Position numbers and translations under genes: made by a program
Assembly: GCA_016218495.1 (NCBI GenBank)
Contig: JACRDU010000097.1
Location: forward strand, 841 to 64,840
Source: Elusimicrobiota bacterium
Lineage (GTDB): Bacteria; Elusimicrobiota; Elusimicrobia; UBA1565
Reading direction: 5' to 3'
Length of the DNA: 64,000 nt
Shown here: positions 5,268-59,782 of the stretch, in pieces
Position numbering within the stretch: the first letter of the stretch is position 1
How the letters are laid out: each line of letters opens with the position of its first letter
The notes under the pieces: generated by a model
The model's database searches: none
Told to the model about the DNA's origin: nothing
The model's input: the letters and a program-made list of their open reading frames with translations, nothing else

Positions 5268-5636
5268 ATGCCTGGCAAGACAATTCTCGTCGTCGAGGAC
5301 GACGAATCCCTAGCGGACCTCATCACCGCCGTCCTCACCGGGGCCGGTTATGGCGTCCGGCGCGCGGGGGATTCCATCCAGGGCCTGATGCTGGCCCACC
5401 AGCTCAAGCCCGACCTGATCGTCCTGGACTTCATGCTCCCGGGCGGCGGCGGGAAGGCCGTGCACAGCGGCGTGCGGCTCTCGGGGCTGACCGCGCACAC
5501 CCCGGTGGTGCTGCTGACCTCGGTGGCCGAAGAGCAGGTGATGAAGGCCATCGACTACGACGCGAACACCTACTACCTGGGCAAGCCCTACCAGAACGCC
5601 GTGCTGCTGAACCTGCTCAAGCAGGTCCTGGGCTAG
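5268..5636 (+). CDS. Single-domain CheY-like response regulator
   Basis: Internal ATG of ORF 5163..5636. The product reads MPGKTILVVEDDESLADLI...DLIVLDFMLPGGGG...YYLGKPY, which carries the canonical receiver motifs. Confidence 0.8.
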   Translation: MPGKTILVVEDDESLADLITAVLTGAGYGVRRAGDSIQGLMLAHQLKPDLIVLDFMLPGGGGKAVHSGVRLSGLTAHTPVVLLTSVAEEQVMKAIDYDANTYYLGKPYQNAVLLNLLKQVLG

Positions 5637-6331: not shown

Positions 6332-7164
6332 CCGAACCTCCCCGTGATGTAGTCCTCGGTGCGCTTGTCCCGGGGACGAGTGAACAGCTGCTGGGTGGCG
6401 CCCTGCTCCACGAGCTCGCCCATCAGCATGAAGACCGTCCGGTCCGAGACTCGGGCCGCCTGCTGCATGTTATGGGTGACGATGACGATGGTGAGCCGTT
6501 CGCGCAGCTGCAAGACCAGCTCCTCGATGCGCGCGGTGGCGATGGGGTCGAGCGCAGAACAAGGCTCGTCCAACAGCAGCACCCGCGGCTCCACGGCCAG
6601 CGCGCGCGCGATGCACAGGCGCTGCTGCTGGCCGCCCGAGAGCCCGGTGGCGGGGGCCTTGAGCCTGTCCTTCACCTCGTCCCAGAGCGCGGCCTTGCGC
6701 AGGCTGTCTTCGACCCGGCGCGCGACCAGCCCGCGGTCCGTCACGCCGGCCAAGGTCAGGCCGGCCGCGACGTTGCCCTCGATGGACATGGTCGGGAAGG
6801 GGTTCGGCCGCTGGAACACCATCCCCACATGGCGGCGCAGCTCGACGGGGTCCATCGCGAAGATGTCGGCGCCGTCGAGGGTCACATCCCCCCGGCAGGT
6901 CGCCGCCCGGGCCGTCTCGTGCATGCGGTTGAGGCAGCGGATGAAAGTGGACTTGCCGCAGCCCGACGGGCCGATGATGGCCGTCACCGAGTTCTCCGGC
7001 ACGCCCAGCGTGACGCCGCGCACGGCGTCGCCCGCCCCGTAGCCCGCATAGAGCTCCGCGACCGCCATGACCGTCTTTCCGGCCGCCTGCGCCCGCGCGG
7101 AGGCGGACACCTCGGGGCGGGGTGGAACGATGTGCTTGGGCTCCGTCGTCATCACGCTCTCCAT
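6328..7164 (-). CDS. pstB: Phosphate ABC transporter ATP-binding protein PstB
   Basis: Tail of ORF 6328..7950. It has Walker [10 protein letters not shown], the signature [14 protein letters not shown] and Walker B LLLDEP. The start at ATG 7164 overlaps the pstA stop (ATGA); ATG 7152 is also possible. Confidence 0.95.
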
Positions 7165-38100: not shown

Positions 38101-39419
38101 AGCTCCTCCCTCCCAAGTCCGGGAGCAACGCGGTCGACGACAAGGACATGCCCAAGACCTGGAGCAAGGCCGAGGTCGCCGCCCTGCGCGGCTTCCTCCA
38201 GGGAGTCCTCTCCTCCGGGCAGGGCTGGGACCAGGGCACCGGGACCCGCGAGCTCACCAAGGAGGAGAAGGCCTACCTCGAGAATACGCTCAAGTCCCTC
38301 GATTCGCTCATCTCCAACTACGACGCCCCCAAGCCCGCCGCGAAGAGCCTGCACGGCGGCGCCTTCGGGCTGTTGGCCGTCGGGGCCGTAGGCCTGGGCT
38401 CCACGCCCGCGGCGGCGGCCTCGGGCCTGCTGCTGCCCGTGCTGGCCCTGGCCGCCGCGGCCTTCGCCGTCTATGCCGGCTGGCTCATCTTCAAGGACCG
38501 CGCGCCGCAGCAGGCGCCCGCCGCGCCGCGCCTGGGCCCTTCGCAAGAGGTGCTGGCGCGCTACAAGAAGCTCGACCTGGCCGCCAAGAAGCTGGCCGCG
38601 TCGCTGACCGAGGGGAAGTTCCGCTCCCGCCTGGTCGGCCCCAGCGGCTTGAGCTTCGCCGAGCTGGCCGCCTACCAGGGCGAGGACATCAAGTCCATCA
38701 ACTGGAAGGCCTCGGCCAAGTCCGACGACCTGCTCGTCAACCGCTACGAGCAGGACAAGGACATGCCGCTCATGCTGCTCATCGACCTGTCCGCCTCCGG
38801 GGACTTCGCGGCCGGCGGCACCGAGAAGCGGCGCGTCATCGAGGACGCCGCGGCCCTGCTGGCCCTGACGGCGGCCCGCCGCAACATCCGCGTCGGCGCC
38901 CTGCTCTTCACCGACCGCATCGAAGCCTTCATCCCGCCCGCCGGCGGCCAGCGCCATGCCTGGGAGCTGGCGCGCCAGGTCATCGACAAGGCCCCCCAGG
39001 GCAGCAAGACCGACCTCAAGCTGGCGCTCGACTTCGCCAACACCCGCTTCCGGAGCCGCGCCATGGTGGTCCTGCTCTCCGACCTGCTCGGGGAAGGCTG
39101 GGAGTCCTCTTTGACCGCCGTGGCCAAGCGCCACGACTTCCGCGCGGTGCGCGTGGCCGACCCGGCCGAGGTGAAGCCCCTGCCCGACGCCGGGCTCGTC
39201 CTGATGCGCGACGCCGAGGCCGGCTCCCAGGGCTGGGCGGACACTTCGAGCCGCTCGTACCGCGAAGCCGCCGGACAGGCCGTGAAGGGCCGCGAACGCC
39301 GCATCGCCGCCGCCCTCGAGGCCGCCCGCACCCGGGCGCTGACGCTTTACACGGACCAAGACCCCATCGAGGAACTGTCGCGCAGGTTCCTGGCCAAGAA
39401 GGCCGGAGCCCGAGACTAA
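29175..39419 (+). CDS. Giant (3,414-codon) polytopic fusion protein: BatD-like Ig module, BatA-like vWA, BatC-like TPR, BatB-like vWA, long helical/HEAT-like region with 3x repeat, and C-terminal DUF58
   Basis: A single stop-free frame of 10,245 nt, with recognisable modules all in that frame (listed as sub-features below). Possible starts are GTG 29175, ATG 29184 or GTG 29250 (VKRAIASALAAIMLVL…). The gene ends in TAA 39417-39419, 11 nt before the moxR ATG. The 2,848-aa antisense ORF is G/R/A/L-rich low-complexity junk. Confidence 0.85.
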   Translation: MGPMTPAGLPHRLNKKIRVSATLSPVKRAIASALAAIMLVLSPGTGCWQAMAQVVTRTGPAAAPARVVVGAPGALGASPTLSAPTLSAPSLSVTLPSPAAPTARGAASASAAAAQSAVPAGLPAPARAAGTVSASAAAPAARAAAQTQGREAVSAGLKNTVKAAAPMLEAAKSGSGGDAHRAGIQLEELLSGAPRRAASDAVTPAPASRLPSFTGRARLGSARVIGAAPSAVMNAVAAPAAPRPSLASRFSASFRRAFLFIRKTAAVATLAAFLPVFGMFGGTPFQILPPVTVQAQLPGQVPGAQVPVAPPQAGVPQAQVPTAQAPVVQASPIEVSVPQTVQGRTVGESVTYSVTLRNTSNAPVTVSSVRTAVEEALPWTLEVTGDADAAPLTLAPGESKTLTFTLLPFDSGKLVLEGAELTIPTSDPEKPIVVKIPSTTFEVASVLTPDWKEKGFKDLAELRRGETPSLLWLLAVPVALLAIAGAERLLASRRRGSEPVVHNGPALDAARTRRARLEEGAASMDARQFYGETLTLVDRLLSDLRGMPRRERAPAQLLKEAAEKYSSGQLSVARRTLETAEAALHGGRADSPEARRQVLVALRELLADLSDQPRPEAPKAGLAGLAALLGTATVSFAHPWALLLLLPIAGWALHKWRQSRTEGWATTAPIPAQTGWKARLRWVPGLLRSSAIALTMLALAGPQLGVKRTETYIPSSDTVIAGDVSGSMSGARLDGLKRAVKDYLVEQRRGSNNRVGLTTFSDEPYLAVSLTTDYDALISRIKETETEGSTAVGKAMLSSISHFLELNIMQLDQSDARVVEMRKMVLGEDLSGALEFAKRHPDLLQKVLQPDHTKILVVFTDGESNTGIDPVAAAKIAKQLGIKVYTVGIQIGSGEQALKDVAQITGGIYFRAEDADGMRNALLDISRLEKSPSLVRSQVAVKDLTTLLALLALLSVTLEVGLSSTKLRTLPAFILAGLMGFSAVQGPAPQPQGAAPQAQASVDAPRGIIERLPLSGVPQEMAEGNALYLQGRYADAVKRYGQALESHPDVPALYFNLGNAYLRLGDVERAARAYGRFLELEKDPKAASEAIYNLANGALMKQDAEKAIELYREALRRDPSNASAKWNLEVVMRLMEEQQKQQGQDGKQQQKQKKGKKGQKGQKGQQGQQQGQKGDQQGEPGDQDGEPGDQQGKPGDKQGKPGDKPGSDAKPSQGERDKGVDGLIQEQGKAEQDGKNGQRGAVPRKGSGVWGFSLAGLGAAAAGFQAPLWLGVALVAVPLVAALVAYAVRKKISAAKSLAPREAPKRFADWAGKRRWTAKLMLLLASVLGLAITAGDPVWGTRDARLNFGGKDVIVAADVSASTLYAEDGRGARIEGELSEFVTRMQGTDRIGLVVFAGKARTASPLSSDYGTFEFKVGRLEREARGLSSGSDLSSAIEHAAKVFNGAKKVGDRQRILIVVSDGEIFDKDLSKAIDAARKAGITIYAIGVGDAGGTRIALPKADGSGSEYLIDEKTGQPAMTRLNEETLRQLASATGGYYFRSSEKASMGGILGKVAAMSQGSETDAIKTPRGIGYVFLTPALLLLLLEAFLPAVPLLRGRRVKAAPAAAPSAPAKTLNGGALLGLAAIPLGLWPQVLPFAALTAVLAGVLLYDISTRGALTRAARAWLGRKAPAEGLQKDLFALFDRPGDTRERWRTTDHAAVSSFVEGWRASSSETRRVLARKAAADPELWREKLVAALLAESAWPAKRGSDEALDAVLSALNTAKRGSLLPLEPIVLGVLDRRAELPWLSHPAVLRPLSRLAAAELDDSAPASRAALQSLASEADGAVASAAREALGDQAPAFKPTRARRIARSGALVFLAAMMGLTGLAGYKTVEFDAARRQAAETALSIFYGEDLFIFTDAYSDERIPREVLPVLKEWHATGKAAASDLAKALEVLRSSPDPKADNILEAVFKRADLMPLTDASENLLLKTLIERDNEPVWRFLNEYMASNGENEKATARLIKMIRIGAELGSEDVFQNTFHFLKSPNQTVRQEAAQAIRASLQAPERAGQLAARLKAVTEKHPEDPTINMWVAFFTLDRLAAADANTIDLGPLDDLLTVALKNAAKGDAARAALIAQVKPGEEDKLPPPALVQAFGLMERSLDRAAGLGANTDPLSLAARKQADVATKNIIVEGRAVFPELKLQLQNNGVMLPDPAPQPSSQGPEDSYDDYHGHGGYGGSYVNPDAVYRPTYTQQHLKALAQAVADARDAAGEKLTPQQREFADRALKSIEAMLSAGAKAGMPEGGTAAEAAADDVNSVLVEGTQKLPGSAFLAELRAAKLAPDAKVGNEKSRAYRQSYAAEDLLKIRAFLIDLLSRGTAAEGGKSSALNWSQKQFLADAITRLDAAIAKHYPAAAALIPADPSAAPLAAFTAAAKAGDEAALTKALTELKAVYDAAPVKDVVLARFKAAYPQSAVGYNDSVRMPVLRFWLDRLAEADGAKLDREGVLEILKAVSPDKMEAGKALAAYDALAKALQASATPAPALVEFAQEQVRLGAKRAYDGAKDALDAKAFAALQNTLRAERLLTKDLAMREVVKPVHLRALEASLKASKKAPAWTVSTVAKLQALTKAAGVPDGGTTAERAADAVNEMLGKGDNAFPSAAWYDALRAEGLAPAGSARGWERALAQSYTPDQLRALNAFINRTLSSGQGWDYSGKPSELTPAQGKALAEMAEALDSALAQFYPDQAALQPAALGRLVANGDHAAASARLAAAGSPAEALAILDAAAERSAGSAEAQKLAARLLAEALSGKNGPGLLEKEESLGFLHELGERLGAREGEALGQLSSALRAAPNPTLKAFIAAAVDARAEELADSIKGAPGAEQALIEAGVVTKRGYSSDTRSSFTQRHLRGLQAEAARLASVKGLTEEQSSAVDKAQKLLPDLLKAAVDAGVPTGTAPGDIAAERLSDIVYEGHMLFPGSRFVDELRAAKLLPPKSGSNAVDDKDMPKTWSKAEVAALRGFLQGVLSSGQGWDQGTGTRELTKEEKAYLENTLKSLDSLISNYDAPKPAAKSLHGGAFGLLAVGAVGLGSTPAAAASGLLLPVLALAAAAFAVYAGWLIFKDRAPQQAPAAPRLGPSQEVLARYKKLDLAAKKLAASLTEGKFRSRLVGPSGLSFAELAAYQGEDIKSINWKASAKSDDLLVNRYEQDKDMPLMLLIDLSASGDFAAGGTEKRRVIEDAAALLALTAARRNIRVGALLFTDRIEAFIPPAGGQRHAWELARQVIDKAPQGSKTDLKLALDFANTRFRSRAMVVLLSDLLGEGWESSLTAVAKRHDFRAVRVADPAEVKPLPDAGLVLMRDAEAGSQGWADTSSRSYREAAGQAVKGRERRIAAALEAARTRALTLYTDQDPIEELSRRFLAKKAGARD
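30171..30510 (+). other. Giant ORF module: Ig-like beta-sandwich (BatD/CARDB/DUF11-like) followed by a TM helix
   Basis: IEVSVPQTVQGRTVGESVTYSVTLRNTSNAPVTVSSV…LTLAPGESKTLTFTLLP…IPSTTFEVAS, then LLWLLAVPVALLAIAG. The assignment is by pattern and is tentative. Confidence 0.45.
31080..31925 (+). other. Giant ORF module: BatA-like N-terminal TM pair plus vWA domain
   Basis: FAHPWALLLLLPIAGWAL… (BatA-type N-terminus), a MIDAS DVSGS at nt 31341-31355, …VGLTTFSDEPY…EGSTAVGKAM…ILVVFTDGESNTG…IKVYTVG…. Confidence 0.75.
32238..32560 (+). other. Giant ORF module: TPR repeats (BatC-like)
   Basis: AEGNALYLQGRYADAVKRYGQALESHPDVPALYFNLGNAYLRLGDVERAARAYGRFLELE…AEKAIELYREALRRDPSNASAKWNL. Confidence 0.75.
32581..32830 (+). 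repeat. In-frame Q/K/G/D/P low-complexity tract, including four tandem 21-nt repeats (32706-32789)
   Basis: …QQKQQGQDGKQQQKQKKGKKGQKGQKGQQGQQQGQKGDQQ, then GEPGDQD-GEPGDQQ-GKPGDKQ-GKPGDKP. The units start at 32706, 32727, 32748 and 32769. Confidence 0.9.
32964..33810 (+). other. Giant ORF module: BatB-like TM pair plus second vWA domain
   Basis: FQAPLWLGVALVAVPLVAALVAY…, a MIDAS DVSAS at nt 33246-33260, …RIGLVVFAGKARTASPL…GSDLSSAIEHA…ILIVVSDGE…ITIYAIGVG…GGYYFRS. Confidence 0.75.
35871..38333 (+). repeat. Three divergent tandem copies of a ~310-350-aa helical module inside the giant ORF
   Basis: The conserved cores are at 35871-36368, 36912-37364 and 37836-38333. Examples: …TQQHLKALAQ…AGMPEGGTAAEAAADDVNSV…LRAAKLAPD…IRAFLIDLLSRG…AIAKHYP; …VHLRALEA…AGVPDGGTTAERAADAVNEM…LRAEGLAPA…LNAFINRTLSSGQGWD…ALAQFYP; …TQRHLRGLQA…AGVPTGTAPGDIAAERLSDI…LRAAKLLPP…LRGFLQGVLSSGQGWD…LISNYD. 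Confidence 0.8.
38545..39416 (+). other. Giant ORF module: DUF58 (vWA-like, MoxR-associated) domain, preceded by TM helices
   Basis: …YQGEDIKSINWKASAKSDDLLVNRYEQDKDMPLMLLIDLSASGDF… (DLSAS at nt 38784-38798), then …VGALLFTDRIEAFIPP…SKTDLKLAL…AMVVLLSDL…. The preceding hydrophobic stretch FGLLAVGAVGLG…LLLPVLALAAAAFAVYAGWLIF lies at ~38350-38500. Confidence 0.8.
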
Positions 39420-39430
39420 AGGAGCCGAAC

Positions 39431-41251
39431 ATGAAAACCAAGACCCTTGAACGGACCGAGACGCTGCTGGCCATGCTGGTGGCCGCCGCCCTCGTCTCCC
39501 CGACGCCGGCGGCCGCGCAGGCCATGCGCACCGCCGCCCCCGCGGCACGGACCGGCCTCTCCGGCGTCGGCGCGGCCGGCTCCGTCACGGTCTCCCCGAG
39601 CGCGGCGTCCCTGGCCCCGACGGCCCCCGGGCTCGCTCCCGTGCTGCCCTCCGCCTCGGTATCCCTGCCGCAGGTCTCCCCGACGGCCAGGCCCGCCGCC
39701 GCCGCCCCCGCGCAGGCCGGAGGACTGCCGGCCCGGGCCTCGGCGGCCGCCCCCGCCGCGGCACCGGTGACCGTTAACGGCGCCCGGGCGGCCAAGGCCC
39801 TCTCCGCCTCCGCTTCTCCCATCGGCGAAGTGCTGAGCGGCATGCCCGAGGCCTCCAAGGCCGCGCCGTCGGCGTCCTTCTCCGCCGGGGTCTCCCTCGA
39901 GGACGCCATGACCCGCCGCGGCAGCCGGGCCGGTTCTGACGCCGTCGTCCCCATCCCCCCGCGCACGATGCGCGGCAGCCTGCTCGCCCGCCCCAACGGC
40001 GCGCTCAACGCGGTCGGGACGGAGGACTGGGTCCCGCTGGCGCAGGCGGTCCCCGCCCCCAGGCCGGGAGGCGCGCTGGCCCTGGCCGCGGCCGCCACGA
40101 AGGACATGCTGGGCACGACCGCCGGCAAGCTGGCCCTGCTGGGGCTCGGCGCCGCGGTGGGGCTCTTGGCGCTGCACGCCTACCTGCCCGCGGCGGTGGC
40201 CTCGCTGTCGCTGTTGCTGATGTCCGGCACGCTGGCGCGTACCCCCGCCCCCGAGGCGGCCCCCGAGGACGCGGCGCTGACCGCCGAAGTGAAGGAGGTC
40301 TCCGGGCTCATCGGCAAGCTGCGCGCCGAGGTCGGGAACGTCATCGTCGGCCAGCAGGAGATGGTGGACTCCATCATCATGGCGATGATCGCCAACGAAC
40401 ACCTCCTCCTCGAAGGCGTGCCGGGCGTGGCGAAGACCGCCACCATCAAGACCTTCGCCGCCGCCACCGGGGCCGACTTCCAGGTCATCCAGGGCACGCC
40501 CGACAAGATGCCCGCCGACATCCTGGGCGCTGAGATCCTGCAGACCGACCAGGCCACCGGCCAGCGCGTGATGAAGCTTGAGAAGGGCCCCATCTTCGCG
40601 CAGTTCGTCCTGGCCGACGAGATCAACCGCATGATGCCGAAGACCCAGGCCGCTCTCCTGCAGGCCATGCAGGACCGCATGGTCTCCATCGGGCGCGAGA
40701 CCCTGCCCCTGCCCAAGCCCTTCCTGATGCTGGCCACGATGAACCCGCTCGAACAGGAAGGCGTCAACGTGATGCCTGAAGCGCAGCTGGACCGCTTCAT
40801 GTTCAAGGTCATCGTCCCCCAGCCCAACCGCGAGGACCGCAAGCGCATCAACGAGATCAACCGCAAGCGCGAGAAGCCCAAGGCGTCGAAGGTCGTCAGC
40901 CTCGAGGACCTCGAGCGCGCCACGGCCCTGGCCGAGCGCGTGGCCCTGAGCGCCGGGATGTCCGAGTACATCCAGGACATCCTCGACGCCGCCCAGGACC
41001 CGTTTAAGTACGGGGTGGGCCAGAAAGGCCTCGTCGAACAGGCGATGGTCACCCGCGCCTCCATCATGATGGAGAAGGCCGCGCGCATCCAGGCCTTGAT
41101 GAACGGACGATCCTTCGTCACGGCGGAGGACGTCATGAAGGTGGCGCCCAAGATCCTGCGCCACCGCATCATCCTCAGCTACGCGGCCGGCGAGATGACG
41201 ACCGACCAGCTCATCGCGGAGATCCTGTCCACGCTCAAGATCCCGAGCTAG
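39431..41251 (+). CDS. MoxR-family AAA+ ATPase with ~275-aa N-terminal signal/Ala-Pro-Ser-rich/TM extension
   Basis: Last 606 codons of ORF 37118..41251, with AAAGGAG (39418-24) 6 nt before ATG 39431. The N-terminus reads MKTKTLERTETLLAMLVAAALVSPTPAAAQA…, with a hydrophobic segment LALLGLGAAVGLLALHAYLPAAVASLSLLLMSG. The MoxR core follows: VIVGQQEMVDSIIMAMIANEHLLLEGVPGVAKT (Walker A), FVLADEINRMMPKTQAALLQAMQD (Walker B), and …ILRHRIILSY. Confidence 0.9.
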   Translation: MKTKTLERTETLLAMLVAAALVSPTPAAAQAMRTAAPAARTGLSGVGAAGSVTVSPSAASLAPTAPGLAPVLPSASVSLPQVSPTARPAAAAPAQAGGLPARASAAAPAAAPVTVNGARAAKALSASASPIGEVLSGMPEASKAAPSASFSAGVSLEDAMTRRGSRAGSDAVVPIPPRTMRGSLLARPNGALNAVGTEDWVPLAQAVPAPRPGGALALAAAATKDMLGTTAGKLALLGLGAAVGLLALHAYLPAAVASLSLLLMSGTLARTPAPEAAPEDAALTAEVKEVSGLIGKLRAEVGNVIVGQQEMVDSIIMAMIANEHLLLEGVPGVAKTATIKTFAAATGADFQVIQGTPDKMPADILGAEILQTDQATGQRVMKLEKGPIFAQFVLADEINRMMPKTQAALLQAMQDRMVSIGRETLPLPKPFLMLATMNPLEQEGVNVMPEAQLDRFMFKVIVPQPNREDRKRINEINRKREKPKASKVVSLEDLERATALAERVALSAGMSEYIQDILDAAQDPFKYGVGQKGLVEQAMVTRASIMMEKAARIQALMNGRSFVTAEDVMKVAPKILRHRIILSYAAGEMTTDQLIAEILSTLKIPS

Positions 41252-53169: not shown

Positions 53170-53685
53170 GTGCTCAGGAACCTCCTGCGCGAGGCACGCG
53201 AGGCCGCCTTGAGCCCGAGGGACTACTTCGGCCGGGCCCCGGCCGAGGAATCCTGGAGGACCCCCGCCGCGAAGGTCGCGGCCTGGTTCTGCGTCACGGG
53301 GGCCGTCAACGTCGTCATCTCGTTCATGGCGGACGGGTTCTCCGCGCTCAACATCCTCGTCAACCTGGTCGCGCTGGCGCTGTTCCCCGTGCTGGGCGTG
53401 GCGGCGGGCTTCCTGGGGGCCTTGGTCCTGCATGCCGTCTGGAAGGCGCTGGGCGGGAAGGCCTCCCTGCAGGCGACCTGGCGGGCCGTATCCTCGGTCG
53501 CCTTCACCATGCCCCTGCTGGCCGCCACCGCGCCGCTGGGGCTCGTCGCCTTCGGGCCCCTGCTCTGGTCCTACAGCCTGCTGGCCTACGCTGGGATGGG
53601 CATCCACGGCCTGTCGAAAGGCCGCTCCTGGGGGGTGGCCGCGGCGCTGGCCGCGACCTTGCTCCCCATCGTGCTGTTGACCTAA
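53170..53685 (+). CDS. Yip1-like multi-pass membrane protein
   Basis: 171-aa ORF (GTG start) with four or five hydrophobic helices after a short polar N-terminus. The family call is tentative. Confidence 0.55.
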   Translation: MLRNLLREAREAALSPRDYFGRAPAEESWRTPAAKVAAWFCVTGAVNVVISFMADGFSALNILVNLVALALFPVLGVAAGFLGALVLHAVWKALGGKASLQATWRAVSSVAFTMPLLAATAPLGLVAFGPLLWSYSLLAYAGMGIHGLSKGRSWGVAAALAATLLPIVLLT

Positions 53686-54113
53686 CGCCCTGTCGAGCCG
53701 AAGCCCTTCTTGCCGCGCTTGGATTCGCTGAGCGCCTTCACTTCCTTGACTGCCGGCGTGGCGATGGGGACTATCAGGAGCTGGGCGACGCGGTCGCCCC
53801 GGCCGAGCGTCACGGGTTCCCGGGAGATGTTCCAGAGCACCGCACCCACCTCGCCGCGGTAGCCGGCGTCGATGACGCCGCCGGCGGTCTTCACTCCCTT
53901 GCGCGCCAGCGAGGAGCGGTCGGCCACCAGGCCGACGAAGCCCTCCGGAATCTGCATCGCTATGCCGGTCGGGACCACGGCGCTCTTGCCGGGCTCCAGG
54001 GTCACCTCCCCGAGGGCGTAGAGGTCCAGGCCCGCGTCGTCGGGATGGGCGCGGGTGGGGAGGACGGCGTCGGCGGCGAGCTTGGCGATCTCGAGGGTGT
54101 CGGGGTGCTTCAT
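53682..54113 (-). CDS. dut: dUTP diphosphatase
   Basis: 143-aa ORF: …DAGLDLY…, …GLVADRSSLARKG…, …GVIDAGYRGEV…, and a C-terminal …RGKKGFGSTG. Confidence 0.95.
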   Translation of the reverse strand: MKHPDTLEIAKLAADAVLPTRAHPDDAGLDLYALGEVTLEPGKSAVVPTGIAMQIPEGFVGLVADRSSLARKGVKTAGGVIDAGYRGEVGAVLWNISREPVTLGRGDRVAQLLIVPIATPAVKEVKALSESKRGKKGFGSTGR

Positions 54114-54595
54114 CGTCCCGGATTATACCTCAGGCGCAGGAGCAGCGGGGGACCGTCCCCCCGCGGCGTCACGATGAACAGGTTGTCATACTCCGCGTCG
54201 GGCACGGTGACCGCCCCCGGTACGCCCAGGCCCTTGAGGATGTCCGGGATGGTGTCGGTATGCCCCACCACCAGGGCGTTCTCGGTGTCGGGGAGGGCCT
54301 TGAGCTCGGCCGCCAGCGCCCCGGCCTTCTCCGAGTCCGTCACGGTGAGCCGGAGGCCCTTGGACTCCGCGGTCGGGGACGCGGTCTGCTGGGTCCGTCT
54401 GTACTCCGTCGCGTAGACGGCCTTGAGCGGGACCGCCGAGAGCAGGTCCTTCAGCGCCGCGGCGCGCTTGTGGCCGCGCCGGGACAGCAGGGAGGCGTCG
54501 TCCTTGGCGTCGGCCCGCTCGGCATGGCGGACCACGATGACCGAAGCCGCGGCCGGCGCCACCGCGAGCAGCAGCGACAGCGCGGCCGCCGTCAT
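54110..54595 (-). CDS. Histidine phosphatase (SixA/PGAM-superfamily) protein, exported
   Basis: ORF 54110..54631. The start at ATG 54595 makes an ATGA overlap with the upstream ATP-grasp::MFS stop. The product reads MTAAALSLLLAVAPAAASVIVVRHAERA… (RHAE catalytic motif) …VVGHTDTIP…. There is also an ATGA overlap with dut. Confidence 0.75.
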   Translation of the reverse strand: MTAAALSLLLAVAPAAASVIVVRHAERADAKDDASLLSRRGHKRAAALKDLLSAVPLKAVYATEYRRTQQTASPTAESKGLRLTVTDSEKAGALAAELKALPDTENALVVGHTDTIPDILKGLGVPGAVTVPDAEYDNLFIVTPRGDGPPLLLRLRYNPGR

Positions 54596-57500
54596 CTCGC
54601 CGCGCGGCCCGACATGGAGCGCGCCAGCCACAGATACCCCGCGGCCGCCGCCGTGTAGAATAGCCCGAAGGCGTAGAACGCGCCGGTCCCGAGCAGGGCG
54701 AAGAGGCCGCCCCAGAGCAGGAACCCGAAGACATGGGACAGGTAGGTCAGGGAGCGGATGGCGCCCAGGATGCTGCCGGAGAGGCGCTCATCGGACTGCG
54801 GGATGCTGTCCTTCATGATGGTGTCGAGGTGGATGAGGGCGCGCTGGGCCGTGAAGCCGATGGCCACCAGGGGCAAGGACACCAGGAAGAACGGCCAGCC
54901 GAAGGTGAAGAGGCTGGTCTGGCTGGCGAAGAGCCACGCTCCCAGCACCGCCGCCGCCGCCCAGCGCAGGGAACGCACGGCGCTGGCGCGGTAGAGCTCG
55001 CGCTGGGCCTCGGCCCGCCGCGGCTCGGGCAGGGCGCTCGTGGCCTTGTCCAGGCGCGTGGCCAGGCGGTCCATGGCCAGCGCGCCGAGCAGGGCGCCGA
55101 CGCCGTAGAGGCCGGTCAGCGAGCCCGACACCGCGGCGGCCTGGGTGGGCTCGCCGGCCACATACGCGCCGAAGGCCGTGGCGACGATGTAGTACAGCAT
55201 GTAGAGGAAGCTGTTGATGAGCATGTAGCCGGCCAGGGGCTTGAGGATGCCCGGGTTGGAGAAGACCGTGCGGAACCCGGCTCCCCAGTCGATGCTCTTG
55301 GTGGCCTCGCGCGGCGCCCCGGGCAGGCGCAGGGCCAGCGCGATGAGGGCCGCGGCGCCGAAGGCGACGGGGGCCGGGTAGATCACGGCCCCGAAGCCGA
55401 AGGCGGCCACGGCCAGCCCCATCGCGGAGGCGACGAAGACCGTCCCGTACTCGACGAAGTCCCGGAAGGAGCCGAAGCGGCTGGACTCCGTCGGCGAGGC
55501 CTTGAACCAGGTCACCTGCAGCTTGTGCTCGGCCACCCGGCCGATGGAATGGGCGAAGTAGTCCAGGCTAAAGAGCGGGACCAGCGCCCACAGCGGGACG
55601 GTGCCGGCGGCGAAGAGCAGTCCCGCCATGGCCGTCCAGACCGCGGTGCGGAAGGCCAAGACCGCGCGGTAGGAGCGCGCGATGCCGAAGCGGTCCACCC
55701 AGCGCCCGCCCAGGAAGCTGCCGGCGGTGTAGGCGGCGTAGCTGATGCTGGTCAGGGCGGCCAGCGCCAGGAAGCCCTGGGTCAGGGGAGCCGTCATCTG
55801 GGAGACGGCCAGGGAGGTCGATTCGACGACGGTGGAGACCAGCACGAAGGTGGAGAGGAAGCCCAGCACCACCTTCGAGAACAAAGACGGCGCGGGCTCC
55901 CCCGGCTGGGCGTGGTCGCCGCGCATCGTCGCCACGGAGCCGTCGGCCTTCTTGACCCCTACGGCGATCCGACGCGCCGCGGCCAGCGTGCGCGACAGGG
56001 CCTCGGAGATGGTGCGCCCCTTCACGATCAGCTCGCCGTACTCCTCGTAGGAGTTCTTGCCCGTCTCCACCACGGTGTCGCCGGGCTCGACGAAGAGCTC
56101 CGCGTATTCGACGCCGGGCGCGGCCGCGGCCTTGTCCATGCCGGAGACGGCGGTGACGGCCCCGCTGTGGGCCGAAGCGAGGAAGCGGTAGTCGACGACG
56201 CCCTCCGGGGCGCGGCCCGGGTCGACGCGCAGGCCCAGGATGGCGCGCAGGCCCTGCTCGACCAGGCTCATCCCGGTCAGGCTCTTGATGGCGAGGAAGA
56301 TGTTGACCCCGCCCATGTAGGGGTTGATCTCGACGACCTTGGGGCCGTCGGGCGTCAGCATCATGTCGACGCGGGCGTTGCCGTCGGTGATGCCGATGAC
56401 GCTCAGCGCCTTCTCGGCGGCGGCGACGACGGCCGCATGGAGCGCCGCGGGGGCCTGGGACGGGAAGGTGATGGAGCCGGCGGCCAATTCCTTGTTGGGG
56501 CCGATGTTCAGGGTGTCCGAGACCATGGCGAAGGCGGCGCGCCCGCCCTGCATCACGACCTCCACCGAGGTCTCCTCGCTGCCGGGGAGCTTCTCGAGCA
56601 TGCGCTCCAGCATGATGCCGGGGTGGTTCGAGAACGTCGTCGTCTTCGCCTCGGGGCGGGCGGTGAAGGCCTTCACGGCCGCGTCCATCTCGCGGTAGGC
56701 CGCCTCGGCCTTCTCGGGCGTGTCGAGGTCCACGGCGAGGAAGCGGCTGTTCTCCCCCCGGATGGTCTTCATGATGAACTTGCCGCCGCCGAGCTCGGCG
56801 AACGCGCGCCGCGCGTCTTCGGCGCTGGTGACCGCGCGCGAGGGGACCTCGAGGTCCTTGTGGGCGTTGAGCACCCGGCGCGTGGCGGTCTTGTCGTCGG
56901 AGGCGCTGACGGCGCCGCCCGGGATGCCGGCGCCGCCGACGAGGTCGGTGATGCGCGCGGTGACCTTGGCATAGGAGGAGAAGAAGCCGGCCACCGCGTC
57001 GGCCCGCGCCGCGGCGGGATGGGCGGCCACCAGGCGCGCCATCCTCTCCACCGCCTGAGGGTCGCGGTCGGTGATGGGGGCGGCGATGAAATGGGAATCG
57101 GGGACCAGCGACTCGGAATGGCCGCGGTGCGCCGGGTCGTCGACGAGGTAGAGGTCGACCCCCAGGGCCTTGGCGGTGCGCACGGCTTCGGCGAGGACGA
57201 AGGGGCGGGAGCGCTTGGTGCCGACCATGATGACGGTCTTGCCCTGCGCCGAGGAATCGGGGAGGACGGCCGGAGCTTCGGGCGCGGCGCGTCCGGAGAC
57301 CTCGGCGACGGCGGAGACGGGCGCCGCCTTCGGCGCGGCCAGGGCCGCCGACGGGGCGGCGGGGACGGCGCGAGCAGCAGGGAGCGCGGCGGCGGCGGCC
57401 GCGGGAGGCAGCGCCGCGCTGAGCCGGGCCTCGGGGAGTTCCGGGGAGACCGGAAGCGCCGGGCGAGACGGCAAGCCCAGGCCGGAAGAGGAGAGCGAAG

Positions 57501-57663
57501 GGGAGAAGGCCGCCGGAGCGACGACGACGCGCGCGGCGGAGACCGAGGCCGCAGGCGCGGCGGGGAGGCTGCGGGCTAACTGGGACCAGGCCGGCCAAGG
57601 AGACGCGAGCAGAGCGGAAGCGAGGAGCAGCGCGAACGGCGTCTTCAGTCGGCTTCGGTTCAT
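54592..57663 (-). CDS. ATP-grasp enzyme fused to a C-terminal MFS transporter, with an N-terminal signal/Ala-Pro-rich leader (1,023 aa)
   Basis: Tail of ORF 54592..58230, starting at ATG 57663 (MNRSRLKTPFALLLASALLASPWPAWSQ…). The ATP-grasp core reads …KTVIMVGTKRSRPFVLAEAV…GKFIMKTIRGENSRFLAV…ARVDMMLTPDGPKVVEINPYMGG…. From ~nt 55890 downward there are about 12 TM helices (…GRWVDRFGIARSYR…). The 948-aa antisense ORF is rejected. Confidence 0.8.
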   Translation of the reverse strand: MNRSRLKTPFALLLASALLASPWPAWSQLARSLPAAPAASVSAARVVVAPAAFSPSLSSSGLGLPSRPALPVSPELPEARLSAALPPAAAAAALPAARAVPAAPSAALAAPKAAPVSAVAEVSGRAAPEAPAVLPDSSAQGKTVIMVGTKRSRPFVLAEAVRTAKALGVDLYLVDDPAHRGHSESLVPDSHFIAAPITDRDPQAVERMARLVAAHPAAARADAVAGFFSSYAKVTARITDLVGGAGIPGGAVSASDDKTATRRVLNAHKDLEVPSRAVTSAEDARRAFAELGGGKFIMKTIRGENSRFLAVDLDTPEKAEAAYREMDAAVKAFTARPEAKTTTFSNHPGIMLERMLEKLPGSEETSVEVVMQGGRAAFAMVSDTLNIGPNKELAAGSITFPSQAPAALHAAVVAAAEKALSVIGITDGNARVDMMLTPDGPKVVEINPYMGGVNIFLAIKSLTGMSLVEQGLRAILGLRVDPGRAPEGVVDYRFLASAHSGAVTAVSGMDKAAAAPGVEYAELFVEPGDTVVETGKNSYEEYGELIVKGRTISEALSRTLAAARRIAVGVKKADGSVATMRGDHAQPGEPAPSLFSKVVLGFLSTFVLVSTVVESTSLAVSQMTAPLTQGFLALAALTSISYAAYTAGSFLGGRWVDRFGIARSYRAVLAFRTAVWTAMAGLLFAAGTVPLWALVPLFSLDYFAHSIGRVAEHKLQVTWFKASPTESSRFGSFRDFVEYGTVFVASAMGLAVAAFGFGAVIYPAPVAFGAAALIALALRLPGAPREATKSIDWGAGFRTVFSNPGILKPLAGYMLINSFLYMLYYIVATAFGAYVAGEPTQAAAVSGSLTGLYGVGALLGALAMDRLATRLDKATSALPEPRRAEAQRELYRASAVRSLRWAAAAVLGAWLFASQTSLFTFGWPFFLVSLPLVAIGFTAQRALIHLDTIMKDSIPQSDERLSGSILGAIRSLTYLSHVFGFLLWGGLFALLGTGAFYAFGLFYTAAAAGYLWLARSMSGRAAR

Positions 57664-57811
57664 GGTCGAGAGTTTATGCCAACGCGCCGCATTTCTGCTG
57701 ATTCGAAGGACCCGCGTGTCTGGAATTATTCGACCTATCCAGACCTGGGACCGCCGCGCGCAGGGAGGGGGTCCATTGCGCCGCCTCGGGGGGGTCCATA
57801 GACCCAGCCTG

Positions 57812-59782
57812 ATGCGGCCCCGCTTCCTTATAATTGCGTCAGTGAAGAGGGTCCTCTCCGGCCTCCTCGCCGGCCTCGTCTTCGCCGCAGCCCTGCCGCA
57901 GGGGGCCTGGGCGCAGTTGGCCGCGACGCGCGCCGTCCCCCTCAGGGCCCCGCTCCCCGCCGTCACCGCCGGCTTCGTCGCCCCGGCCCCGGTCGGCGGA
58001 TTATCCGCATCGCCCCTGAGCGCCCCCCGCCTCTCGGCGCCGACGCTGCCGTCGTTGGCCCTGCCGGAGGCCCGGTCCGCCCCTTCCGCGGCGAGTGCCG
58101 CGGCCGCCGCGGCGGGGGCCTTCGCGCCGTCCGTCTCAGCCCAGGCCCTCCCCGCCGCCGTCGCCGCTCCCGCCGCCGCACGGGGCGCCGCCGCCCCGGC
58201 CCCCCTCCTGCGGGCCGACGCACCCGTCACGGCGGAGGAGGCGAAGGAGGCGTTCCGGAACGCGCCCGCAGCGCGCCGTGATTACCTGCGCGAGCGCTTC
58301 CGCGAGCTGCGCGCCGCATTCTCCATGCGCGCTCCTCAGGACCTCCGCGTTTCCGAGGCGGCGCCATCCCGCCCCTCCGTCGGGGAGCCTAGCCTCGCCA
58401 AGGGCCTCGCCCCCGCGCAGGCCCCGGGACCCGCGCCCATCCCCGCACCGGCTCCGGCGCGTGCCCGCGGCTGGCTGGGCTTCGGAAGCGCCCTCACCTT
58501 CTTCCTGGCCGCCATCGCCATCGAGAACATCGGCAATGAGACCCAGGCGGCCGCCATGCCGCCGCTCTTGGCCAAGGTCTTCGGCGACGTATCGGTGTCG
58601 GCGGACCTGGGCATCGGCTCGGCCCTGGCGGACTTCGCCGGCTCTCTGCTGGCGCCGCTGGTCATCAAGCGGCTGGGGCTCAAGTCCGCCTTCTTGTGGA
58701 CGGCCGGAGCCCGCCTCCTCTCAGGCGCCATCATCGCCGGCTTCCTCGCCGTGGGCCACATGACCATGCCCGCCCTGATGGCGGCGACGGTCTTCGCCGG
58801 CTTCGTGGGCGGGATGAACTACGCCATCGAGAAGTCCATCCCCCCCGTCCTGCTCGACCAGGACCGCGGCAAGCTCGAACGCTTCAAGGCGGCGCGCCAA
58901 TCCGTCATCGAGGTCGTGGCGACGGTGTTCCCCATCGTGACGGGGACCGTGGTGGCCGCCTGGGGCTTCCTGCCCGCGCTGGTGGCGTTCCCGGTCAGCG
59001 CCGCCGTGGCGATGGCCATCGTGGCCATGACCCTCAAGTTCCCGAGCAAGGCCAAGACCCTGCTCGCCGCCCCGCCCCAGGGCACCACGCCGCCCAAGCG
59101 GAGCTTCTGGCGCGCCCTGACCCACGGTGCGCGCATCGTGATGGGCACCCCCGCCCTGCGTCACGCCTTCTTCGGCTATTCGCTGTTCTTCGTGACCACG
59201 CCGCTGCTCTACTGGCTGGTCGCCCCCGCTTACGGCATCTTCGTCGCGGGCGCCGCCGGAGCGGAGTACGCCGCCCTGGTCTCCGGCTACATGCTGGGCT
59301 TGTTCAGCCTCGGCGGCCTGGCCGCCAGCGTGCTCATCATGCGCGAGCAGCGCCGCCACGACAGGCTCGGCGAAGCCGAGAAGCGCCGCGCGCTGAGCGC
59401 CTCCTTGGTCCGCTGGGCGAAGCTGGCCACGGCCTCGCTGGCCGCCCTGGCCCTGATGGCCCTCCCTCTGCCGGTCTGGGGCGCCCTGACCGTCCCCGCC
59501 CTGGCCCTGATCCCGTTCGGCATCGCCCAGGTCATCGCCAAGCTCAAGGTCGAGTCCTTCTTCCAGTCCCGCGCCCCGGCCGACGCCGTCGACGACGCCA
59601 CCGCCTTCATGGAGGGCGCGGCGATGCTTGTCCAGATGGCCGTGCTCTGGGCAGCCAAGCTTGCCTTCACCGCCTTCACCGGCATCGGCCCCTTCATCGC
59701 CATCGCCGCGGGCCTCGTCCCGTTCGCCGCGCTATGCTGGTGGGTGACCTCCCGGCTGGCGAAGCTCCAGGAATCCAAGTAA
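57812..59782 (+). CDS. MFS-type transporter with N-terminal signal/Ala-Pro-rich leader
   Basis: Tail of ORF 57170..59782. The start is ATG 57812 or GVG-free GTG 57842 (VKRVLSGLLAGLVFAAALPQGAWAQ…). A ~200-aa A/P/S-rich region is followed by about 12 hydrophobic helices (…LLAPLVIKRLGLKSAF…). Confidence 0.75.
   Translation: MRPRFLIIASVKRVLSGLLAGLVFAAALPQGAWAQLAATRAVPLRAPLPAVTAGFVAPAPVGGLSASPLSAPRLSAPTLPSLALPEARSAPSAASAAAAAAGAFAPSVSAQALPAAVAAPAAARGAAAPAPLLRADAPVTAEEAKEAFRNAPAARRDYLRERFRELRAAFSMRAPQDLRVSEAAPSRPSVGEPSLAKGLAPAQAPGPAPIPAPAPARARGWLGFGSALTFFLAAIAIENIGNETQAAAMPPLLAKVFGDVSVSADLGIGSALADFAGSLLAPLVIKRLGLKSAFLWTAGARLLSGAIIAGFLAVGHMTMPALMAATVFAGFVGGMNYAIEKSIPPVLLDQDRGKLERFKAARQSVIEVVATVFPIVTGTVVAAWGFLPALVAFPVSAAVAMAIVAMTLKFPSKAKTLLAAPPQGTTPPKRSFWRALTHGARIVMGTPALRHAFFGYSLFFVTTPLLYWLVAPAYGIFVAGAAGAEYAALVSGYMLGLFSLGGLAASVLIMREQRRHDRLGEAEKRRALSASLVRWAKLATASLAALALMALPLPVWGALTVPALALIPFGIAQVIAKLKVESFFQSRAPADAVDDATAFMEGAAMLVQMAVLWAAKLAFTAFTGIGPFIAIAAGLVPFAALCWWVTSRLAKLQESK

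Follow-up and report, generated by a model that had tools for sequence, protein, structure and literature searches.

P0001 is one real gene, conserved in Elusimicrobiota, a little-studied phylum, and encodes in a single frame a Sec-like leader, a low-complexity linker, an ATP-grasp ligase and an MFS transporter. Its product is a membrane-bound enzyme–transporter whose function we infer from the sequence. Tentatively, and with less than even confidence, we favour the explanation that the ligase operates at the cytoplasmic face and is coupled to export, while the leader, as part of a lineage-specific membrane module, does not translocate the enzyme. The features of the locus are given in Table 1, with coordinates in the window, i.e. 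the whole stretch of 64,000 nucleotides that was analysed.

Table 1 Features of the P0001 locus and the evidence for them
Feature	Position	Strand	Evidence
P0001, whole gene (leader, linker, ATP-grasp ligase, MFS)	54592..57663	minus	ORF and translation, 1,023 aa
Sec-like leader, residues 1–28	57580..57663	minus	conserved motif, synonymous codons, same build in paralogues
Low-complexity Ala/Pro/Ser linker, residues 29–139 (111 residues)	57247..57579	minus	composition, AlphaFold2, GC3
Predicted ATP-grasp ligase domain, L-amino-acid-ligase type, residues 140–590	55894..57246	minus	Pfam, PDB profile, Foldseek, invariant residues
Short tether and 12-helix MFS domain, residues 591–1023, predicted N-in/C-in	54595..55893	minus	AlphaFold2, motif A, K+R count
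Small histidine phosphatase, 161 aa, plain signal peptide	54110..54595	minus	His_Phos_1, RHAE and GH motifs
dut (dUTPase)	53682..54113	minus	Pfam dUTPase 1.7e-36, TIGR00576
Divergent gene P0002, 656 aa, leader, linker and 12-helix MFS paralogue	57812..59782	plus	translation, profile, AlphaFold2
Intergenic region, 148 nt, between P0001 and divergent P0002, both leader-bearing	57664..57811		sequence read

A conserved ligase–transporter fusion

The frame of P0001 runs from ATG to TGA over 1,023 codons, and the protein begins MNRSRLK; upstream of the ATG the frame stays open to 58230, and that extra stretch overlaps the divergent gene. The initial annotation had proposed a ligase–MFS fusion in a single frame and had considered a possible break between the two parts. 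The fusion is borne out: reading of the ORF on the minus strand found neither a stop nor a frameshift at the junction, and the same fusion is kept in more than 60 full-length orthologues (994–1,100 residues, 53–86% identity). Two further, partial sequences share 86–93% identity, and the named orthologues are from Elusimicrobiota in every case. The AlphaFold2 model of the whole protein has a mean pLDDT of 81.6.

In the wider ligase/transporter family the two parts occur split, fused, or fused in reversed order with the MFS ahead of the ligase, and this range of arrangements indicates that the enzyme and the transporter are functionally linked. At another locus (L029) a different type of ATP-grasp protein, PGM1-like, is fused to an MFS-like domain and adjoins a GGT gene.

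The ATP-grasp ligase domain

A complete ATP-grasp core had been claimed for P0001, and Pfam, AlphaFold2 and Foldseek all support it. LAL_C2 matches residues 493–570 (51.4 bits, cut-off 29.4) and ATP-grasp_3 residues 338–451 (24.4 bits, cut-off 23.2), and AlphaFold2 predicts a confident ATP-grasp fold at residues 133–581 (pLDDT >90). The closest ATP-grasp subfamily, which the initial annotation had asked about, is that of the L-amino-acid ligases (LALs) according to the LAL_C2 match, to a PDB profile search that retrieved BL00235 (3vot, 1.8e-9) and BacD (2.9e-9), and to Foldseek, where the best matches of the ligase model were BacD (3vmm), BL00235 (3vot) and RizA (4wd3) with TM scores of 0.70–0.79. 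Identity to these solved ligases is only 15–17%, and the substrates of characterised LALs are therefore not transferable to P0001. None of five residues, K299, R431, D433, E445 and N447, varies among 65 sequences, and comparison with solved ATP-grasp enzymes suggests ATP/Mg roles for them. The domain can thus be classed, from its sequence and predicted fold, as an intact LAL-type ATP-grasp ligase, and with LAL_C2 above its cut-off and the ATP/Mg-site residues invariant it looks active.

Orientation of the MFS domain in the membrane

The roughly 12 MFS-type transmembrane helices described for P0001 are recovered in the AlphaFold2 model, which places 12 membrane helices over residues 594–1022 with a central loop at 781–809; this is the MFS layout, with two halves of six helices each and a long cytoplasmic loop between them. 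The Pfam MFS_1 match of P0001 itself (residues 609–944) scores 21.6 bits, under the cut-off of 33.4, and most orthologues have PF07690 recorded. MFS motif A, of consensus G-x-x-x-D-R-x-G-R-R/K, is present as GGRWVDRFGIARSYR (residues 652–666) in loop 2–3, which carries three to five K/R in 63/63 orthologues, and across these 63 proteins K+R amounts to 29.7 per protein on the ligase side as against 0.33 on the opposite side. In the predicted N-in/C-in orientation the ligase has its C-terminal end on the K/R-rich side, which is the cytoplasmic one; together with the need for ATP, this locates the ligase at the cytoplasmic face, with access to ATP. Two other arrangements count in favour of a cytoplasmic ligase: P0117, a fusion in reversed order (leader, linker, MFS, ATP-grasp), on direct reading likewise has its ligase behind a 12-helix domain that is N-in/C-in, and at locus L028 a leaderless ligase directly adjoins a leaderless transporter.

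The leader and the topological paradox

The signal-like N-terminus with its positively charged tip MNRSRLK, reported in the initial annotation, is present and is conserved as protein in the orthologues. It is built as MNRSRLK / FALLLASALLAS / PWPAWS/Q, comprising an n-region with three K/R, a hydrophobic core of 12 residues and the end SPWPAWS/Q, and the motif A-P-W-P-A-W-A-Q-x-A-R is kept in 54–62 of 63 orthologues. Reading of the sequences finds the features of a Sec leader of the signal peptidase I type (a positive n-region, an h-region of 12–14 residues, Pro/Gly as helix breaker and an A-x-A site), and this anatomy is common to all 34 leader-bearing proteins listed, in every paralogue group; each n-region holds one to five K/R, and in most leaders S/A-P follows the hydrophobic run (e.g. 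ASPWP, LSPGTG, VSPTP, LAPG). A Sec signal would be expected to leave the downstream chain outside the cytoplasm, and the positive-inside count and ATP dependence, as read from sequence, do not agree with this. The topological paradox that had been pointed out is therefore genuine: the leader is conserved, yet K/R bias, motif A and the need for ATP speak for a cytoplasmic ligase. Because the MFS orientation fixes the ligase end as cytoplasmic, the dilemma remains as stated: the leader may anchor the protein without translocating it, or else the ligase acts in a compartment where it would not be expected.

The second possibility would make the leader a working Sec signal, with the ligase outside the cytoplasm, the MFS termini periplasmic, and ATP or an activated substrate supplied there. 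It draws on the canonical signal-peptide anatomy of the leaders throughout the paralogue groups, on the presence of the leader on stand-alone ATP-grasp proteins (P0071, P0072, P0086–88) and on the nearly uncharged linker, and the ligase–MFS, MFS–ligase, leader–ligase and leader–MFS architectures are all self-consistent with both MFS termini out. We consider it unlikely, since about 30 K/R and motif A would lie outside and about 0.3 inside in 63/63 orthologues and the ATP/Mg site of the ATP-grasp domain is intact; to our knowledge there is neither a naturally inverted MFS of this kind nor a periplasmic source of ATP. Cysteine content bears on both sides. The leader-bearing ATP-grasp domains contain no cysteine in 8,087 residues, compared to 39 in 3,473 (1.1%) in leaderless homologues (p = 4e-21), and cysteine exclusion of such a kind is usually taken as a sign of export. 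However, ORFs of the lineage with a plain hydrophobic N-terminus have 0.92% cysteine and are thus not cysteine-poor, so that what cysteine loss marks is the leader–linker module and not export itself; in the giant Bat ORF cysteine is missing from the parts on either side of the membrane. The absence of cysteine from module-bearing proteins is left unaccounted for by a non-translocating leader, and it counts against our preferred explanation.

That preferred explanation supposes that the leader would insert in the membrane while the chain behind it is not taken across; it would be re-entrant, or have an N-in/C-in topology of another kind. The leader and its uncharged linker form a lineage-specific module, which also heads the MFS paralogue P0002, a LonC-like protease, a MoxR ATPase and the giant Bat protein. 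Both P0002 and the giant Bat ORF continue after the module with K/R-rich sequence, next to which comes an in-to-out helix, and this suggests that translocation of the chain is not obligatory for the leader; the 22-residue stretches after the leader are likewise net positive in most of 18 leader-bearing representatives (hand tally). The module could serve to target or co-localise the machines that bear it. A non-translocating leader, with a possible targeting role, is our preferred reading and at the same time the weakest step of the explanation.

According to Entova et al. (2018, eLife, PMC6133551), K/R ahead of a short hydrophobic helix that Ser/Ala-Pro interrupts points to a re-entrant helix wrongly predicted to span the membrane; elements of this sort are regularly mistaken for spanning or signal segments. 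The PglC re-entrant helix and the P0001 leader share K/R, a hydrophobic helix broken by Ser/Ala-Pro and a downstream domain that is cytoplasmic (predicted, for P0001) (PMC6133551), and both the K/R before the helix and the Ser/Ala-Pro break are found in the leaders. In contrast, the two packed arms of about 12–15 residues of PglC are missing: the cores of P0001-family leaders span 12–14 residues, the second arm of P0001, AWSQLARS, is short and polar, and its family form AWAQxAR is barely hydrophobic. Furthermore, the leader leads into a disordered linker of about 95 residues, whereas in PglC a packed catalytic domain follows, and neither structure nor covariation supports a leader hairpin. Several points count against the preferred explanation. 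The leader looks like a textbook cleavable Sec leader with a core too short for the two-armed helix of PglC; AlphaFold2 gives it no confident placement (pLDDT 47–58); and an extra anchor is redundant, since neither a polytopic MFS nor a ligase fused to one needs it. As a 19-mer the leader also has a poor membrane-insertion score (crude Hessa sum).

Neighbouring genes and the direction of transport

The stop/start coupling of fusion, phosphatase and dut that had been described is present in the window but is not a constant of the family. Direct reading confirms both ATGA overlaps (aga tga / ATG ACG at the fusion stop and phosphatase start; cga tga / ATG AAG at the phosphatase stop and dut start), whereas among about 20 orthologous loci the phosphatase lies directly 3' of the fusion in only 7, and dut does not follow it in the three relatives' loci with inspected downstream gene lists (L003, L004, L006). 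The exported RHAE-motif histidine phosphatase was correctly recognised: it has a His_Phos_1 match (3e-10, 40.5 bits, cut-off 21.7) and a predicted signal peptide, and R23-H24-A25-E26 and the second histidine, in G111-H112, are invariant in four homologues. It resembles the PmrG/Ais-type and SixA-size branch 1 in its RHxE and GH motifs and signal peptide. A PmrG equivalog it is not; the full-length NCBIfam PmrG match is weak, with a score of 27.7 far under the cut-off of 170.

The second leader-bearing MFS gene annotated divergently at 57812 exists and extends to 59782. P0002 has a counterpart only in the closest relative and bears a leader of the same kind (PQGAWAQ); a conserved RFxELRAAF helix lies in its linker of 185 residues, and the 12-helix MFS domain that follows has 30 K+R inside and one outside (hand-reading of the translation). 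This domain is distantly paralogous to the fused MFS, with 24% identity over 400 aa; P0002 has no Pfam match, and in P0001 orthologues its family profile matches the MFS part as well as the leader/linker. Its AlphaFold2 model resembles ferroportin most closely and also matches MdfA, LmrP and other MFS structures (TM 0.68–0.74). A NUDIX gene and a response regulator are also found near the fusion in the window, a LonC-like protease and SpoU in relatives' loci, and frequent neighbours include a nucleoside transporter and a second MFS.

The nearest characterised counterparts of the fusion are BacD (YwfE) and BacE of the Bacillus subtilis bacilysin operon. BacD shares with BL00235, RizA, TabS and P0001 the ATP-grasp subtype with LAL_C2; P0001 is closest to BacD, BL00235 and RizA by sequence and fold, and the pairing of ligase and MFS transporter is likewise shared. 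BacD and BacE, however, are separate proteins, whereas the P0001 family joins both functions in one polypeptide, in either order, has a Sec-like leader, a long linker and no cysteine, and is conserved across the phylum, unlike the sporadic bacilysin-type antibiotic cluster. No bacilysin-type warhead genes (bacA–C, F, G) were found among the neighbours of the fusion in the window or in relatives' loci. The locus may act like a BacD/BacE pair, yet it does not belong to the bacilysin type of cluster. On the preferred explanation, the ligase would join a carboxylate and an amine via an acyl-phosphate into a dipeptide-like amide and hand it directly to the fused MFS for export, as the fused counterpart of BacD/BacE-like pairs, and in about a third of loci the exported phosphatase would act on the product or a related substrate outside the cytoplasm.

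The same anatomy, cytoplasmic ligase included, could instead serve import, with the MFS bringing in a compound that the ligase traps by ATP-dependent (vectorial) ligation after a periplasmic phosphatase has dephosphorylated its precursor. LplT, an MFS lysophospholipid flippase, works with the ATP-dependent acyltransferase/synthetase Aas and is fused to it in some bacteria. This offers a precedent for import-and-ligate in which an MFS is coupled or fused to a ligating enzyme at the cytoplasmic face, although Aas is adenylate-forming rather than ATP-grasp and LplT–Aas lacks the leader module. The phosphatase with its signal peptide, coupled in 7 loci, fits dephosphorylation, import and ligation as well as it fits export, and the frequently neighbouring nucleoside transporter and second MFS also suit import. 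So does the lack of a recognisable antiporter motif C in TM5 of the fused MFS on direct reading, a point that counts against our export reading. Set against import are the absence of the phosphatase from most loci, the biosynthetic role of the closest characterised ligases (BacD, RizA and TabS-type), which are clustered with exporters, and, weakly, the ferroportin/MdfA-like fold matches of P0002, which are to efflux-type MFS. We regard import as improbable, and a make-and-export role as the better candidate.

The path of the linker and the start of translation

The Ala/Pro-rich stretch had been put at about 120 residues; its composition is as described (34% Ala, 17% Pro, 14% Ser; A+P+S 65%), while the measured linker has 111. 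Charged residues make up 4.8% of it (63 orthologues, median length 94 aa), compared to 15.4% in the cytoplasmic tether between ligase and TM1, and this dissimilarity is a further count against the preferred explanation. AlphaFold2 leaves leader and linker disordered, the latter with a pLDDT of about 30 and no secondary structure. A hybrid topology, in which the signal is cleaved and the linker or its N-terminal part lies outside (e.g. reaching to the wall or outer membrane) before the chain comes back to a ligase in the cytoplasm, would make the ligase position compatible with both the Sec-like leader and the uncharged linker, and the MoxR protein of the same window, where leader and linker are followed by a 36-residue hydrophobic segment ahead of the ATPase, would fit such a return path. 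Yet none of the 63 linkers contains a membrane-helix-like stretch (the best 19-mers score about +6.8 kcal/mol when approximate Hessa scale values are crudely summed), AlphaFold2 predicts no helix, and we know of no mechanism for a stable non-helical crossing; we hold this topology to be quite improbable, and return to a leader that would not translocate the chain.

Least probable by far is an annotation artefact in which translation would really begin further downstream, close to the ATP-grasp domain, and would leave leader and linker unread or rarely read: it would explain the lower GC3 (linker 0.85, leader plus linker 0.75–0.85, domains 0.965), leaderless homologues that begin 2–14 residues ahead of the first strand, and the lack of a clear Shine-Dalgarno sequence before the ATG at 57663 in the intergenic sequence, but the frame is open through an indel-rich linker in more than 60 orthologues and in every paralogue group. 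Initiation at the internal Met146, suggested as a way out of the paradox, fails, because this position lies inside the first beta-strand of the ligase domain and is Leu or Ile in 15/65 sequences. Leader codons vary synonymously among loci (Arg, for example, is CGC in some and AGG in another), and the protein motif kept through these changes indicates that the P0001 leader is translated.

A ligase and a transporter in one reading frame

The fusion P0001 was initially annotated as one frame that joins an ATP-grasp ligase to an MFS transporter, and every particular of that observation is confirmed by the ORF itself, by Pfam and by AlphaFold2. Pfam recognises ATP-grasp_3 at residues 338–451 and LAL_C2 at residues 493–570 (51.4 bits, cut-off 29.4), with a sub-threshold match to MFS_1 at 609–944 (21.6 bits, cut-off 33.4). 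AlphaFold2, supplied with a 65-sequence alignment, predicts the ATP-grasp fold confidently across residues 133–581 (pLDDT mostly >90) and 12 membrane helices across 594–1022; the first 130 residues are modelled as disordered except for a short N-terminal helix. The membrane domain is laid out as in MFS proteins and carries motif A (GGRWVDRFGIARSYR). Among 5.8 billion proteins searched, about 65 are full-length relatives (994–1,100 residues, 53–86% identity) and two are partial ones (86–93% identity), and all that carry an organism name are Elusimicrobiota. Orthologues are present in 21 GTDB species representatives, all Elusimicrobiota except one unclassified MAG labelled only 'bacterium' (locus L007), the nearest relative of the window. 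The fusion is kept in the full-length relatives, with no stop or frameshift separating ligase from transporter. At locus L026 the orthologue lies in two overlapping frames, which may reflect a frameshift, an assembly error or a pseudogene.

The nearest ATP-grasp subfamily, for which several candidates had been listed at the outset, is that of the L-amino-acid ligases. Searched as a profile against PDB sequences, the ligase domain found BL00235 (3vot, 1.8e-9) and BacD (2.9e-9), and Foldseek placed BacD, BL00235 and RizA on top (TM 0.70–0.79), with biotin carboxylases and PurK/PurT ranking below the L-amino-acid ligases. Residues K299, R431, D433, E445 and N447 do not vary across 65 sequences; comparison with ATP-grasp enzymes of known structure suggests that they are the ATP/Mg residues, and with these kept the enzyme looks active. 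Identity to characterised ligases is 15–17%, so no substrate can be named.

The fusion belongs to a wider family. A ligase-domain profile matched 46 of 1.8 billion representatives at E < 1e-30, in four forms: stand-alone ligases with a leader (about 560–630 aa), leader-bearing ligase–transporter fusions (1,035–1,273 aa), one reversed fusion (P0117: leader, linker, MFS, ligase) and ligases without a leader (434–463 aa). In the split form at L002 the gene after the ligase overlaps it by 4 nt and also opens with leader and linker. At L028 a ligase without a leader stands immediately before a 478-residue transporter, likewise leaderless, which resembles the C-terminal domain of P0091-type fusions. 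A PGM1-like enzyme, of a different ATP-grasp type, is likewise fused to an MFS-like domain at L029, where it adjoins a gamma-glutamyl transpeptidase (GGT) gene and P0117. The occurrence of fusions in both orders alongside split pairs is strong evidence that ligase and transporter function together. For the wider family, the L029 gene set is a hint of gamma-glutamyl or D-amino-acid peptide chemistry; its PGM1-like fusion (1,089 aa) bears a leader and its GGT a signal.

Pairs of ligase and MFS exporter are known from dipeptide-antibiotic pathways as separate genes. BacD and BacE, ligase and exporter, are two genes, whereas here a single chain holds both. Literature searches found no published description of the ligase–MFS family. 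The fusion is new, but it is a variant on a known pairing, and what stands out as unusual is the leader module, together with its signature in cysteine content. Retention across Elusimicrobiota as one chain, in both orders, points to direct channelling of a putative small amide from synthesis to transport. The direction of that transport, export or import-and-ligate, is a question separate from topology.

Coordinates of the genes and segments discussed (window positions unless a locus is named)
Feature	Position	Strand	Description
Ligase–MFS fusion P0001	54592–57663	−	ATG 57663 to TGA 54592; 1,023 residues; start MNRSRLK
Small histidine phosphatase	54110–54595	−	161 residues
dut	53682–54113	−	
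MFS paralogue P0002	57812–59782	+	656 residues
P0001 leader and linker	57247–57663	−	third-position GC 0.75–0.87
P0002 leader and linker	57812–58468	+	third-position GC 0.75–0.87
P0002 helix RFxELRAAF(G)	58271–58321	+	residues about 154–170
Giant Bat ORF	29175–39419	+	3,414 residues; opens ...KRAIASALAAIMLVLSPGTGCWQAMAQ
MoxR ATPase	39431–41251	+	leader, linker, 36-residue hydrophobic segment, ATPase with intact Walker motifs
LonC-like protease	L003:3651–7280	−	
LonC-like protease	L005:2621–6100	−	
LonC-like protease	L006:2823–6281	−	
LonC-like protease	L010, L011, L013, L015, L018–L020, L022, L023		cut ORFs
LonC-like leader ORF	L001:6011–6286	−	apart from body
LonC-like body	L001:2760–5978	−	
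Ligase–MFS orthologue, two frames	L026:3779–4456 and 4236–6668		overlapping
Three-gene set	L029:938–9006		co-directional PGM1-like ATP-grasp–MFS, GGT, P0117; alanine racemase gene nearby

The leader and linker

P0001 opens with three K/R, a 12-residue hydrophobic run and then SPWPAWS-QLAR. Among the 63 orthologues this motif is strongly retained: Pro22 in 55, Trp23 in 55 (Phe in 6 more), Pro24 in 62, Ala25 in 61, Trp26 in 54, Gln28 in 57 and Arg31 in 58. The underlying codons vary synonymously between loci (Pro CCT/CCG/CCA/CCC, Arg CGC or AGG), and the motif is therefore selected as protein. Orthologues with short called starts have an in-frame MKLRA... just upstream. Initiation at an internal methionine, suggested initially as an escape from the conflict between an export-type leader and an ATP-requiring ligase, is rejected: 15 of 65 sequences have Leu or Ile at position 146, which lies inside the first strand, so the paradox stands. 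The linker has a median length of 94 residues and is 63% Ala+Pro+Ser and 4.8% charged across the 63 orthologues, compared with 15.4% charged in the cytoplasmic stretch that tethers the ligase to helix 1; neither Kyte–Doolittle, nor a crude Hessa sum over the 63 orthologues, nor AlphaFold2 places a membrane helix in it. Third-position GC, lowered in leader and linker (Table), is 0.95–0.97 in the folded domains of P0001 and P0002, a difference suggesting that codon selection is relaxed, or turnover fast, in these segments.

Comparison of 34 leader-bearing proteins reveals a common anatomy. The N-tail has 1–5 K/R in all 34 and an acidic residue in 3; an uncharged run of 10–17 residues (mostly 13–14) follows, then a Ser/Ala-Pro(-Gly) break, an aromatic residue and Q/A-A-x-A. 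The pattern is that of a textbook Sec signal peptide. A spanning helix with its N-terminus outside is judged unlikely, given K/R in every N-tail and acidic residues in so few.

One module on unrelated proteins

The same leader and linker head several other proteins. The divergent gene beside the fusion had been noted as leader-bearing, and its product P0002 indeed has a like N-terminus. It is a distant paralogue of the fused MFS domain (24% identity across 400 residues) whose family profile matches P0001 orthologues at 1e-16 to 1e-31 and whose model matches ferroportin, MdfA, LmrP and further MFS structures. In the giant Bat protein the module is followed by about 230 low-complexity residues, a K/R-rich stretch (RFSASFRRAFLFIRK), a helix and an Ig-like domain, in that order; from sequence the module end looks cytoplasmic again, and what comes after it and the K/R-rich stretch looks like the original signal-anchor of the BatD-like part. 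The P0002 family keeps a short helix, RFxELRAAF(G), without variation (pLDDT 73–82) about 50 residues ahead of helix 1, and a similar stretch, RFSASFRRAF, stands just ahead of the first helix of the Bat giant.

A LonC/LonB-like protease of 1,150–1,209 residues (AAA_32, LonB_AAA-LID and Lon_C domains) opens with MIIEKTAAKKSLAVTLALALF..AP..AWSQ, or the variant LPGGAWAQ, and then a linker. In at least 12 orthologous loci its gene stands next to the fusion in divergent orientation, and in L013 it is found downstream; in the window it is absent from the position adjoining the fusion. With a degenerate Walker A (GPDGSGRE, lacking Lys/Thr), the protease contributes no argument from ATP and was dropped as a further instance of the paradox. 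LonC is ATP-independent, and by analogy this protease may be too. The separation of leader and body at L001 may stem from a frameshift, an assembly error or a pseudogene.

That the module is shared across families is judged from pattern and composition and from the P0002-family profile matching the orthologues. A leader profile built from the orthologues did not match the MoxR, Bat or P0002 leaders, and a large-database search with the leader region alone gave one trivial match because the motifs are too short for a database of that size. Plain signal-bearing enzymes of the same loci (S58 peptidase, small phosphatase, GGT) pass directly from signal to domain without a linker.

Which side of the membrane holds the ligase?

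Charge distribution is strikingly one-sided. Averaged over the 63 orthologues, loops on the ligase side of the membrane hold 29.7 Lys+Arg (range 24–34) and the opposite loops 0.33 (range 0–3); for P0002 a hand count on the translation gives 30 versus 1. Motif A, to our knowledge cytoplasmic in every studied MFS protein, belongs to the K/R-rich set, and the reversed fusion P0117, read directly, is N-in/C-in with its ligase after helix 12. Together with the ATP requirement, these sequence features place the ligase at the cytoplasmic face. The topological paradox raised for the window gene is thus genuine and family-wide.

Cysteine content complicates this picture. The ligase domains of 18 leader-bearing representatives (<50% mutual identity) contain no cysteine in 8,087 residues, against 39 in 3,473 for eight leaderless homologues (Fisher p = 4e-21). 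Of 65 aligned family sequences (orthologues and two stand-alone ligases), 53 have none in some 1,000 residues; P0001 itself has 0/1,023. The other module-bearing proteins are similarly depleted: P0002 has 1/656, MoxR 0/606, the Bat giant 1/3,414 (in the leader) and the LonC-like proteins 0–1 in about 1,150–1,209. Among 136 ORFs from the window and loci, validated by third-position GC, module-bearing ORFs have 0.02% Cys, compared with 0.92% for a crudely defined class with plain hydrophobic N-termini, 0.69% for other membrane proteins and 0.85% for soluble ORFs; the loss tracks the module, not export or membrane location generally. A simple mark of export is not accepted, given the 0.92% in plain hydrophobic-N-terminus ORFs of the same loci. 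Cysteine loss is usually read as exposure to an oxidising compartment, which counts against a cytoplasmic ligase.

The model we rank ahead, with rather less than even confidence, is nevertheless a cytoplasmic ligase with a non-translocating leader, one that would not carry its C-terminal flank across the membrane. In its favour, cytoplasmic-side features come after the module in the fusion, in P0002 and in Bat, which are unrelated families, and by hand tally most of the 18 leader-bearing representatives carry net positive charge just behind the leader. Such a charge, according to work by von Heijne and by Kajava, hinders export. K/R ahead of the helix and a Ser/Ala-Pro break in it, both present in the leader, are named by Entova et al. 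2018 (PMC6133551) as determinants of re-entrant helices wrongly predicted to span the membrane. The short hydrophobic core, the polar second arm, the uncharged linker and the exclusion of cysteine speak against the model.

A cleaved, translocating signal that exports the ligase would agree with the Sec-like leader, but under it the MFS would have to be inverted, about 30 positive charges would lie outside and the periplasm would need to offer ATP; we consider it unlikely. We give little credence to a hybrid topology, and an annotation artefact is very improbable.

A broader reading, possible but doubtful, is that in Elusimicrobiota the leader and uncharged linker form a new kind of N-terminal sorting module, a Sec mimic tied to the near-complete loss of cysteine from whole proteins and placed on a defined set of machines that are otherwise cytoplasmic in type or N-in: ATP-grasp ligases, MFS transporters, the MoxR ATPase, the Bat giant and the LonC-like protease. 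It could send them to a specific place in the membrane by a route not yet described, leaving them on the cytoplasmic face, or else ATP-dependent enzymes of Elusimicrobiota work beyond the cytoplasmic membrane; either, if true, would break a textbook rule of topology prediction. Signal peptide, positive-inside rule and cysteine content are three compartment predictors in conflict here, with very strong statistics, and the conflict is common to several unrelated families with one N-terminal module, which makes them a natural test case. Its resolution would bring to light either a membrane-targeting element of a new kind or a compartment new for ATP-dependent enzymes, and automatic annotation of module-bearing proteins as 'secreted' is unsafe.

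Neighbouring genes

The proposed coupling of the fusion to a histidine phosphatase and dut holds in the window, where both ATGA overlaps are read (agATGAcg at the phosphatase start, cgATGAag at the dut start), and falters beyond it. The phosphatase, with invariant RHAE and GH motifs, its own signal peptide and a weak PmrG-like match, directly follows the fusion in the window, L003, L004, L006, L007, L013 and L027 and is missing from about 12 further loci whose downstream sequence is long enough to tell; it is thus an optional partner. No dut follows it in L003, L004 or L006, the three downstream gene lists inspected, which makes dut a probable passenger. P0002 occurs in the window and L007 alone. 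At L001, L003 and L006, 1.5–5 kb downstream of the fusion, a 409–410-residue MFS_1 gene and Nucleos_tra2 form a divergent pair; Nucleos_tra2 is a concentrative nucleoside transporter, and the nucleotide-related neighbour in the window is dut.
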